Positions 57,609-62,270 of a stretch of 64,000 nucleotides of DNA are shown here, piece by piece. Source of the stretch: Octopus sinensis (taxonomy: Eukaryota). A model generated the notes under the pieces. The model was given only the letters and a program-made list of their open reading frames with translations, was not told the DNA's origin and made no database searches. A program made the position numbers and the translations under genes. Every line of letters starts with the position of its first letter. Positions within the stretch are counted from its first letter, which is position 1. The stretch spans positions 31,620,001 to 31,684,000 of the forward strand of contig NC_042999.1 of the NCBI RefSeq assembly GCF_006345805.1, given 5' to 3'.

Positions 57609-57951
57609 CTATAATATACGACACAGAACGTGTTATTTACCAAGGGTTGAAAAAGTAGTAGCATTATATATATATATATATAATACCACACATATATATA
57701 TATTATATATATTATATAATACACCACATATCAATATCTACCTGGGACCCCTAGCTTTTGTTAAAAATCATGCCCTATACAATGAATAGTGAGGTGAGAA
57801 TATCATGCCCGGTTGAATAGGAGGACGTCGTAGAAAGCATGGGAGCTACACACGAGAACCACAGCGAAGCCGACTACTGACTGCTGCTGGAATAACCTCA
57901 TGCACAAGAATTGCTAGCATTTTGCATGACCAACGCATTATATATATATAT

Positions 57952-58305
57952 GTGGCATCTTGGGCAAATGTCTTCTGCTTTAGCCCCGGGCCGACCAATG
58001 CCTTGTGAGTGGATTTGGTAGACGGAAACTGAAAGAAGCCTGTCGTATATATGTATATATATATGTGTATGTGTGTGTGTTTCTGTGTGTGTGTTTCTGT
58101 GTGTGTTTTTGTCCCCCTAGCATTGATGGACAACTGATGCTGGTGTGTTTACGTCCCCGTCACTTAGCAGTTCGACAAAAGAGAACGATAAAATATGTAC
58201 TGGGCTTACAAAGACTAAGTCCCGGGGTCGAGTTGCTCGACTAGAGGCGGTGATCCAACATGGCCGCAGTCAAATGACTGAAACAAGTAAAAGAGAGTAA
58301 AAGAG
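57952..58305 (+). mobile_element. OK-like SINE, 5'-truncated
   Basis: Matches the 22365 copy from GTGGCATCTTGGGCAA onward. Confidence 0.92.
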
Positions 58306-58327
58306 TGTATATATATATACACACACA

Positions 58328-58368
<41 letters not shown>

Positions 58369-58586
58369 TCAATATAGGGTGGCAAAAAAAATTTTGTAGA
58401 ATTTTTTTGCCACCAGCGGCCTAGTGGAAAAAATTAAATAGTCATAGACCATTTTTAAGTTCAACATCAACAATCAAGGAACGGCCATAATAGGCCATTC
58501 ACCCACTAGAAATAACAGCCAAAGCTTCAACCGCAAAAAAGTCAATTCCGTAAACAGGAGAAAATTTTAAAAACATTTACCCTGTA

Positions 58587-58692
58587 ATTTCTTATACGAT
58601 GCACCGTTTCATCTGTTGTTAATGGTAAACTAACCTGATTAAATTAAATCAAGCCAATCTTCCATAGGCCCTCAGATTCTTCAGTAAGAAAT
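58587..58692 (-). ncRNA. Canonical type I hammerhead ribozyme, copy 1
   Basis: atttctta-CUGAAGA-aucug...cagau-GAAA-CGGUGCAUCG-UA-taagaaat. Confidence 0.92.
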
Positions 58693-59077
58693 AGCACAAG
58701 TCGGAACAGATATTTTCACGAGGCATTTCCGACCCTGCCAAGGTAATATCTGACCTAAAATTTTCAAATCATCGCACTCGCGCCAAATTTATCGGCAGCA
58801 AATAAATATAAGCCGTCGATTCCATTACGGAATTAACCAGAAAATTCATAATTAATCAATATAGGGTGGCAAAAAAAATTTTGTAGAATTTTTTTGCCAC
58901 CAGCGGCCTAGTGGGAAAAAATTAAATAGTCATAGACCATTTTTAAGTTCAACATCAACAATCAAGGAACGGCCATAATAGGCCATTCACCCACTAGAAA
59001 TAACAGCCAAAGCTTCAACCGCAAATAAAAGTCAATTCCGTAAACCAGGAGAAAATTTTAAAAACATTTACCCTGTA

Positions 59078-59184
59078 ATTTCTTATACGATGCACCGTTT
59101 CATCTGCTGTTTAATGGTAAACTAACCTGATTAAGTTAAATCAAGCCAATCTTCCATAGGCCCTCAGATTCTTCAGTAAGAAAT
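59078..59184 (-). ncRNA. Canonical type I hammerhead ribozyme, copy 2
   Basis: Same motif, 491 bp from copy 1. Confidence 0.92.
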
Positions 59185-59569
59185 AGCCACAAGTCGGAAC
59201 AGATATTTTCACGAGGCATTTCCGACCCTGCCAAGGTAATATCTGACCTAAAATTTTCAAATCATCGCACTCGCGCCAAATTTATCGGCAGCAAATAAAT
59301 ATAAGCCGTCGAACTTAAAAATGGTCTATGACTATTTAATTTTTTCCCACTAGGCCGCTGGTGGCAAAAAAATTCTACAAAATTTTTGTTCCCACCCTAT
59401 ATTGATTAATTATGAATTTTCTGGTTAATTCCGTAATGGAATCGACGGCTTATATTTATTTGCTGCCGATAAATTTGGCGCGAGTGCGATGATTTCAAAA
59501 TTTTAGGCCAGATATTACCTTGGCAAGGTCGGAAATGCCTCGTGAAAATATCTGTTCCGACTTGTGGCT

Positions 59570-59676
59570 ATTTCTTACTGAAGAATCTGAGGGCCTATGG
59601 AAGATTGGCTTGATTTAATTTAATCAGGTTAGTTTACCATTAAACAGCAGATGAAACGGTGCATCGTATAAGAAAT
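59570..59676 (+). ncRNA. Canonical type I hammerhead ribozyme, copy 3 (inverted unit)
   Basis: Same motif; GUA at 59666-59668. Confidence 0.92.
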
Positions 59677-59800
59677 TACAGGGTAAATGTTTTTTAAATT
59701 TTCTCCTGTTTACGGAATTGACTTTTATTTGCGGTTGAAGCTTTGGCTGTTATTTCTAGTGGGTGAATGGCCTATTATGGCCGTTCCTTGATTGTTGATA

Positions 59801-59835
<35 letters not shown>

Positions 59836-60190
59836 GCAAATGAGAAACTGGAGAGGATATAAAATCGACTTACATCAGCAGATGAACACTCCATTATATA
59901 TATTTATTCAGATGTATTCGATGAATAGACACACATGTAAGAGTGGTTCATATTGGGGAGTGGATAAAAAAACTGGTAACTGTATAAACAATGGTATGAA
60001 TACACATAAGCATATGGATACAAATGAGCAATTGAGCAAATGAGCAAACTAGCAAAAATCTAAATGTCCCTAGCACCTGACCTGCACGACCATGTGTGTA
60101 TTCATCCAATACATTTGAATAAAGACTTATAATGGAATGTTCACCGACTGATGTCTCTCGATTTTATATCGTCTCCGTTTTCTTATTTGG
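59836..60190. repeat. ~355-bp element with ~100-bp imperfect terminal inverted repeats
   Basis: CAAATGAGAAACTGGAGAGGATATAAAATCGA..CATCAG..TGAACA.TCCATTATA..TTTATTCA.ATGTATT.GATGAATA..CACACATG is mirrored at ~60091-60190. Confidence 0.8.
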
Positions 60191-60395
60191 TCTATAAGTC
60201 AAGGGTAAACCACTTTTTTTTTTTAACCCCAGCCCATATATAATACCTATTTACGAGATTTTCATGCAATAACTAGTACTTGCATATGAAAATATACTAT
60301 CGGGAGTATATTGGATAGTTACTATTTCTTGGTTGGTTTCTCAACCTCTAACTCGCACTCATATACATATGTGTCTATGTAAATATGTATATATA

Positions 60396-61748: not shown

Positions 61749-62270
61749 CAGTCGATTAGATCGACCGCACTACGGAATTGGTACTTAATTTATCGACCCC
61801 AAAAGAATGAATGGCAAAGTCGACCTCAGTGGAATTGGAACATAGCGGCAGACGAAGTACCTATTTATTTACTACCCACAAGGGGCTAAACAAAGAGAGG
61901 ACAAACAAGGACAGACAAACGGATTAAGTGGATTATATCGACCCCAGTGCGTAGCTGGTACTTATTTATTCGACCCCGGAAGTCAAAGTTGACCTCGTGG
62001 GAATTTGAACTCAGAACGTAAAGACAGACGAAATACCTATTTCTTTACTACCCACAAGGGGCTAACACAGAGGAGACAAACAAGGACAGACAGACGGATT
62101 AAGTCGATTATATCGACTCCTGTGCGTAACTGGTACTTAATTCATCGACCCCGAAGGTATGAAAGGCAAATTCGACTTCGGCGGAATTTGAACTCAGAAC
62201 GTAACGGCAGACGAAATACGACAACGCATTTCGCCCGGCGTACTAACGTTTCTGCCAGGACGCGCCCTTA
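61749..62270 (-). mobile_element. Three tandem tRNA-derived SINE copies (34418 family)
   Basis: Repeated ATCGACCCC..AAAGTCGACCTC..GAATTTGAACTCAGAACGTAA..CAGACGAA blocks. Confidence 0.88.

Follow-up and report, generated by a model that had tools for sequence, protein, structure and literature searches.

The 64-kb window of the Octopus sinensis genome (contig NC_042999.1; the window is the whole stretch of DNA that was analyzed) contains, at 58361-59799, one insertion of a repeat that lacks ORFs and whose 491-nt units each contain a type I hammerhead. It belongs to a young and new non-LTR retrozyme family, and mobilization of this family by Penelope-like elements (PLEs) is well supported by the DNA structure. 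We propose that a hammerhead tandem repeat is copied into (TA)n by a borrowed PLE RT-endonuclease, with both strands primed on one RNA, probably a circle; we give this account as a whole a probability of about 0.7. Its assignment to the metazoan non-LTR retrozymes is close to certain. The class and the PLE link are already published (PMC7229834; bioRxiv 10.64898/2026.07.22.740005; PMC11167929); here and below, PMC7229834, PMC8557442, and the preprint are cited for the accessible portions of their text. A retrozyme-type element and PLE mobilization had also been proposed in the first-pass annotation of this DNA, and both fit the genome-wide data.

As that annotation had it, a unit of ∼490 bp is repeated ∼1.95 times in tandem: 58361-59312 has a period of 493, with 1.9 copies and 98% matches. 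An inverted third unit is present as well, in an arm that is 98% complementary, but its end had been placed 1 nt short of 59799. This unit is permuted, as claimed, but comprises only 488 nt of the circle (monomer positions 136 to 491 plus 1 to 132), and that it comes so close to a full unit is incidental. In 58361-59798, stop-free frames reach at most 53 codons, in keeping with the reported lack of an ORF, and the minus-strand distance from cut to cut is 491 nt, the size given earlier for the monomer that is predicted to be released. The monomer has a GC content of 36%; folded as a circle, it reaches an MFE of -142 kcal/mol (z of -5.3 versus 40 shuffles), and most of hammerhead stems I and II is formed. 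The tail between the 3'-end sites S1 and S2, a concept introduced for PLEs (PMC8557442; PMC11167929), is 106 nt long in the reference unit.

Table 1. Features of the insertion at 58361-59799 and of a second insertion in the same window
Feature	Coordinates	Strand	Remarks
(TA)n target, left side	58331..58360	.	
Arm 1	58361..59312	-	1.94 units in tandem, read leftwards; outer 3' end at S2
Tail between S1 and S2	58361..58465	-	At arm 1 end only; contains hairpin 58378-58414
Type I hammerhead 1	58587..58692	-	Predicted cut between 58595 and 58594
Cut-to-cut monomer	58595..59085	-	491 nt; predicted linear or circular RNA unit
Structured domain with S1 and S2	58846..59006	-	Putative RT docking domain
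Type I hammerhead 2	59078..59184	-	Predicted cut between 59086 and 59085
Inversion junction	59311..59312	.	2-nt overlap of both arms' 5'-truncated ends
Arm 2	59311..59799	+	488 nt of unit; outer 3' end at S1
Type I hammerhead 3	59570..59676	+	Predicted cut after 59668
(TA)n target, right side	59800..59835	.	
Second independent two-armed insertion, sister subfamily B	13476..14151	.	488-nt unit, 95% to A

We scanned both strands of the window for hammerhead structure and found four type I hammerheads, at 58684(-), 59176(-), 59578(+), and 13930(+). Three of these are the ones behind the earlier claim of a complete type I hammerhead in every unit, with N17 at 58595, 59086, and 59668 as then reported; the match at 13930(+) is absent from that annotation. 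In each of the four, stem I has 8 bp and stem II has 5 bp, stem III is short, and CUGANGA, GAAA, and GUA are present; the ∼58-nt insert of stem II has its own hairpin. The Rfam hammerhead models, suggested earlier as a check, returned 0 matches at the gathering threshold, and the 21 Rfam matches with E values up to 10 include no hammerhead family, probably because of the long stem II insert. The microRNA-precursor matches among the Rfam results are the two inverted arms folding back on each other, far below gathering. Stem III is a near-palindrome (-1.2 kcal/mol as a monomer versus -19.5 as a dimer), and these energies fit the dimer cleavage mode described in the accessible part of PMC4209133.

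To assess covariation, we assembled 42 distinct hammerheads from 55 loci; one of the 42 (L351) is probably a chance match. The set was picked by core pattern with the stems unconstrained, and its core conservation is therefore no evidence. Stems I, II, and III (outer pairs) are paired in 91, 80, and 95%, compared with 71, 53, and 50% when the 3' halves are shuffled; for each stem, 0 of 1,000 shuffles, which ignore relatedness, reach the observed pairing. All three hammerhead stems covary across ∼70%-identical relatives, and this covariation suggests that a ribozyme with predicted self-cleavage is under selection. N7 can be any of the four bases, N17 is C, A, or U, and the 5' core is unbroken in 297 of 301 copies from 75 loci of subfamilies A to D. 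Counting against the ribozyme, pair 10.1-11.1, the first of stem II, is retained in just half of the 42 hammerheads, and A-C or A-A occurs there in mobile subfamilies; in the alignment that displays A-C and A-A at this pair, which includes one copy deleted at the cut, covariation is weak (reached by 5 of 500 shuffles). According to the accessible text of the 2026 preprint (bioRxiv 10.64898/2026.07.22.740005), of 9 Xenopus dimers tested, 8 failed to cleave.

The 20-nt stem III motif has 2,680 exact copies in the 2.72-Gb genome, compared with 0 for a reversed control; the repeat is therefore not a product of chance. The first 100 motif places form ∼35 clusters, which extrapolates to roughly 900 to 1,000 insertions, and the family is dispersed over many chromosomes. 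The insertion at 58361-59799 falls into subfamily A, whose best copies are 97 to 100% identical; a search with the unit gave 192 matches at 97 to 100% in 39 scored of 801 candidates. Subfamily B is represented in the window by the second insertion, whose hammerhead, at 13922-14028(+), differs at N7 and has a compensatory change in stem II; its S1 end lies at 14151 in (TA)n, and its opposite end is irregular. Subfamilies C and D stand at 92 to 93% identity, and older relatives at ∼70% are likewise ORF-less and circularly continuous. A looser stem III pattern found 703 hammerheads versus 4 in the control. A distant family, E, has a 533-nt unit and shares with family F a motif present at 1,760 places. 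Two motifs taken from a diverged contig end matched nothing relevant.

The unit is also present in sequencing runs X1, X4, X6, X15, and X16, under four organism labels, in contigs with the same subfamily variants. None of these runs is recorded as RNA, and contigs, which were examined for six runs, would look alike for a circle and for tandem DNA. A 521-nt self-closing contig of run X4 was accordingly not counted as evidence of a circle: tandem DNA gives an identical graph, and the RNA status of the run is a guess.

TA runs gather nested PLE-type elements. One two-armed A insertion is duplicated in full and in tandem, TA flank included, at L297:7990-9901 and L298:1-2230, where it lies between two Hydra insertions. 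In the window, the TA run of the B insertion also holds the 3' end of an abundant Neptune-type pLTR at ∼14175, and a small inverted pair (59830-59933 with 60093-60196, 82%; 59830-60196 overall), possibly another short element, adjoins the TA run on the right of the A insertion. A Neptune-type RT fragment lies at 2-360 (-), ∼62% to the family of L183, and a minimal hammerhead-like motif with a 4-bp stem II at 18930-18965 (+) resembles the pLTR hammerhead of a C-rich Neptune family. Pieces of very high-copy short interspersed repeats occupy 57950-58290 and 61750-62219, the second being a 175-nt tandem.

All arms of the retrozyme point outward, with their 3' ends at (TA)n. S1 and S2 lie 132 and 238 nt past the predicted cut in A, 131 and 235 nt in B, and about 158 and 290 nt in E. 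We took a census of ends with a tolerance of 12 nt; loci were the best-scoring or first-listed copies, and the census therefore leans to young, intact insertions. Among 38 A insertions, all 26 two-armed ones combine S1 with S2, and the 12 one-armed ones end at S1 (5), at S2 (6), or elsewhere (1). The 18 B insertions include 14 with two arms, 11 of them S1+S2 and 3 with S1 plus an irregular end. Both C insertions are S1+S2 (a third row, L143, cut by the locus edge, was left out), as are all 11 two-armed insertions among 13 of E. In total, S1+S2 occurs in 50 of the 53 two-armed insertions of A, B, C, and E, and S1+S1 or S2+S2 in none of the 53. No 3' end in the census falls at the hammerhead cut. 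Inner junctions, on the other hand, are variable: 25 insertions gave 12 overlaps, 3 blunt joints, and 10 joints with filler, two long overlaps probably being mapping artefacts in the hairpin, and the 50 inner truncation points are scattered round the unit.

The permuted starts had been taken to fit reverse transcription of a circular or multimeric RNA. Such a template does fit the genome-wide data, but the starts are two fixed, family-wide sites rather than points of free entry on a circle. S1 and S2 match the two internal RT start sites and the tail of PLEs (PMC11167929; PMC8557442), and the ends and inner junctions bear the PLE hallmarks described in PMC8557442. Three traits of PLE-mobilized DNA are present: an inverted 5'-truncated arm, a tail at one end, and a microsatellite target. 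We consider it highly probable that a PLE primes both target strands.

Both start sites lie within one folded stretch. In 58846-59006(-), a long-range helix of 58990-58997 with 58908-58915 closes a multi-way junction, which is followed by a hairpin at 58865-58901; S1 is in or at the loop of the second hairpin of the junction, and S2 comes after the last hairpin. The closing helix is paired in 93.7% of cells, and 3 of its 8 pairs show double changes; its covariation score is reached by 0 of 500 shuffles (relatedness ignored), and slid controls pair 14 to 54%. The S1-S2 stretch folds alike in A, E, and F (z of -5.6, -2.2, and -4.4). A covarying RNA fold thus spans both sites, and it may be where the PLE enzyme binds.

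Compared with the metazoan non-LTR retrozymes of coral, mussel, and axolotl (PMC7229834; bioRxiv 10.64898/2026.07.22.740005), the octopus element has the same ORF-less tandem units with a GC content of <45% and one type I hammerhead each. Also shared are a short, palindromic stem III of the kind suited to cleavage as a dimer, a predicted circle that pairs with itself, copy numbers in the thousands, and co-occurrence with PLEs. Among the traits that mark a metazoan non-LTR retrozyme, three are found here: low-GC, ORF-less tandem units of a few hundred nucleotides, a complete type I hammerhead in at least two consecutive units, and dispersed multicopy occurrence. The long, hairpin-bearing stem II insert sets the octopus unit apart from those retrozymes as their accessible descriptions give them, and so does its size, 491 nt as against about 170 to 400 nt in PMC7229834 and 51 to 972 bp in the preprint. 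Plant LTR retrozymes have a type III hammerhead in LTRs, a PBS and PPT, and a 4-bp TSD; the octopus element, in contrast, has type I topology, a tandem plus inverted layout, and no LTR pair.

Like EN+ PLEs, notably the Hydra clade (PMC8557442), it forms partial tandems, has an inverted copy with 5' truncation and a tail on one end only, targets (TA)n, and has a hammerhead upstream of the 3' ends. Unlike in EN+ PLEs, however, the RT/GIY-YIG ORF of an autonomous element is absent, the whole element is one pLTR-sized unit repeated, and the tail of 106 nt exceeds the 30 to 40 nt given in the accessible text of PMC8557442. Poseidon PAc of Anolis, as characterized in vitro (PMC11167929), also starts reverse transcription at two internal sites that lie downstream of the cut, the first in a stem-loop, with the stretch between them as the tail, both strands nicked and extended, an AT-rich target, and a predicted dimer. 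PAc differs in being autonomous, and PMC11167929 saw no strand difference in the start site, a point against our reading, with end pairing uncounted, whereas octopus insertions have one of each. Chlamys MRC1 (PMC8557442) is likewise a noncoding PLE dependant with multicopy head-to-tail insertions, but the Chlamys elements are from green algae, most lack canonical hammerheads, and their 3' sequence is common with the helper, as far as the accessible text describes them.

The first-pass annotation knew of no description of this family in cephalopods, and we found none in the literature outside most subscription journals; the supplement of PMC7229834 may list cephalopods. In the accessible main text of that paper, no two-armed (TA)n insertions with fixed unequal ends are described, and the words inverted, microsatellite, cephalopod, and octopus are absent. 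No mollusc is among the taxa named in the accessible portion of bioRxiv 10.64898/2026.07.22.740005. The same literature, again without most subscription journals, contained no published description of the one-of-each end pairing.

The octopus genome offers several candidate helpers. Among them are young, intact Neptune-type ORFs (781 aa, with RT and GIY-YIG), which are 98 to 99% alike and end at (TA)n. Very young autonomous Hydra-type PLEs (L285-L296 and L334-L341) have intact ORFs of 727 aa (H1) and 842 aa (H2), with 20,694 and 17,170 first-look candidates. The Hydra clade is marked by RWK-like and DKT motifs, a CxCx5C linker, and CxxC and CxH near the C terminus (PMC8557442), and the supplement of that paper lists Hydra-1_Obim (Octopus Hydra), with a (TA)n preference. 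H2 has RWA, DKT, CxCx5C, CxxC, and CxH; H1 has RWK and EKT, with one Cys of the linker replaced in the examined copy. Both fit the clade by motifs rather than by a tree, and both target (TA)n. Two-armed Hydra copies have one end of each kind in 12 of 12 cases (H1, 7/7; H2, 4/4; H3, 1/1), and the tails of H1 to H3 measure ∼70 to 105 nt. The pLTR hammerheads of H2 to H4 have long stem II inserts like those of the retrozymes; that of H1 is compact, with a 2-bp stem II. A Hydra-clade PLE is, by a slight preference, our candidate for the helper.

Each search scored 150 of several thousand PLE candidates; among the Neptune and Hydra families thus reached, no family has sequence in common with the unit, and no cognate pLTR was found. 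Several apparent leads were set aside: two short BLAST matches (L180 and L182) lie outside the PLEs, a C-rich Neptune beside a family E copy (L196/L225) is a mere neighbor in the same TA run, and the short ACCC motif that precedes S2 in H2 is too weak to be given weight. The window itself has a decayed PLE fragment at 1938-3158 (-), with a Hydra-like endonuclease end and 5' truncated at a TA run; its family is old, with over 4,000 candidates, and we dropped it as a lead to the helper, its copies being old and without similarity to the unit. As a separate observation, a Neptune pLTR hammerhead (L175:5300-6460; L193:5570-5610) has a U3-A8 core variant, with a 479-codon ORF upstream that overlaps the RT ORF.

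The arrays bear on the RNA that is copied. The 113 full units diverge by 0.57% when they lie in one arm, by 0.91% when they lie in opposite arms, and by 1.45% when they come from different loci, and haplotypes are fixed over both arms of an insertion. Nine variants, each private to one insertion in a sample of 38 loci, occur in every unit of that insertion that covers the position (12 of 12 in L061, for example); L245 has 0 variants in 8 pieces over both arms, and L246 and L249 have one each. These shared haplotypes point to one template per insertion event. Indels at the cut occur at 3 of 309 junctions, compared with 6 of 299 in a control stretch, and of 50 5' ends, 1 falls within 2 nt on the downstream side of the cut and 3 just past it. 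Because the cut bears no scars, the template extends across it, either as a closed circle or as a multimer left uncut. There is neither an excess of cut indels nor a pile-up of 5' ends, which disfavors template jumping from end to end on a cut linear monomer.

For the circle speak arms of up to 12 units together with ribozyme selection in ORF-less lineages. Counting against it, 28 variants are common to only part of an array. Of 20 arrays examined for unit variants, 4 gave no reference unit. Variants mirrored from the outer ends in L063 (T9C), L021 (C218T), and L007 (at a CpG) fit a heterogeneous multimer; others are mirrored from the axis (L066 and L063), and many partial variants recur two units apart (L061, L064, L065, L067, L068, L257, and L259). 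Dimer steps, conversion, or assembly are possible causes of the two-unit spacing, and later conversion or assembly polishing could lie behind the partly shared variants. On balance, we favor the circle as the usual template, with some reserve.

The alternative to reckon with is PLE double priming on an uncut linear multimer transcribed from an existing array, with unequal crossover or conversion lengthening and homogenizing arrays in place and the hammerhead only trimming transcripts. In vitro, insertion does not need hammerhead cleavage and uncut RNA is the main substrate (PMC11167929), which counts against a circle; the outer-end mirrored variants of L063, L021, and L007 and partial sharing at spacings of 1 to 3 units in at least 8 arrays are also in accord with a multimer, and local amplification is proposed in bioRxiv 10.64898/2026.07.22.740005. 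Yet arms reach 12 units, and units are identical on both arms of the youngest insertions. Because 5' truncation is variable, daughters could only be shorter than their source arrays, and long-term ribozyme selection in ORF-less lineages that are ∼30% diverged asks for a role in the cycle. We judge the multimer unlikely, at something near one chance in five.

Two further explanations fare much worse. The units might be solo pLTRs or truncated ends of one autonomous PLE, with the full copy missed and the tandem form a by-product; this would suit the Hydra pLTRs, which have similar hammerheads and two ends, and the scoring of 150 of several thousand PLE candidates per search. In arrays, however, S2 continues straight into the next unit with no ORF, and the ∼70% relatives are ORF-less and circularly continuous too. 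Hydra endonuclease matches upstream of related hammerheads (L369, L370, and L348) proved to be separate insertions with a TA run between. Nor does the unit occur only as a pLTR on an autonomous ORF, the outcome that the first-pass annotation had named as fatal: 110 A to D loci (432 kb) hold 2 PLE fragments detected with a first protein set and 1 more with a Hydra protein, and in the one inspected (L016/L297), a TA run separates the unit from the fragment, which has its own pLTR. We regard the solo pLTR as very improbable, and still less credit goes to a DNA-level satellite or foldback with a vestigial hammerhead, spread by recombination or replication errors in (TA)n. Tandem arrays and a palindromic layout would agree with a satellite, and homopolymer indels suggest long-read errors in the assembly, but the fixed unequal 3' ends, variable inner ends, and many-chromosome dispersal do not, nor does RNA-level covariation with G-U pairs, and autonomous PLEs obey the same end rule. 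The end census and stem covariation largely refute this explanation.

Under the retrozyme account that we prefer, the array would be transcribed, two hammerheads would pair via the palindromic stem III and excise monomers, and a host ligase would close them, as in the accessible text of PMC7229834. A PLE protein, a predicted dimer, would bind the folded domain downstream of the cut; the fold itself is indicated by covariation. Both (TA)n strands would then be nicked, with one 3' end priming at S1 and the other at S2 through AT microhomology, an enzymology modeled on PMC11167929 for ends that are observed. Each cDNA would extend back across the cut site over 0 to 12 units to a variable stop, and a short overlap or filler would join the two, in line with the structure seen in the DNA.

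As a family, these elements are ordinary: one more retrozyme, in a new animal group. Their value lies in testing how PLEs integrate and whether the circle model holds. The accessible text of PMC7229834 proposes retrozyme circles as PLE templates, that of bioRxiv 10.64898/2026.07.22.740005 calls the mobilization mechanism still to be elucidated, and PMC11167929 left the later integration steps unvalidated. The family makes sharp predictions for the existing in vitro assay, namely, two exact start sites, one per strand, and multi-unit cDNA from a circle, and the covarying docking fold and young intact candidate enzymes of the same genome provide the test material. More tentatively, and at somewhat less than even odds, octopus-type retrozymes may be an old, self-sustaining RNA-circle lineage that parasitizes Hydra-clade PLEs via a conserved two-module docking fold, the PLE dimer priming one site per strand and each RT rolling round the circle. 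If true, this would bring the PLE tail and the inverted arm under one general rule, and it would be the first time that rolling-circle reverse transcription of a circular RNA from an animal is recorded directly in a genome.
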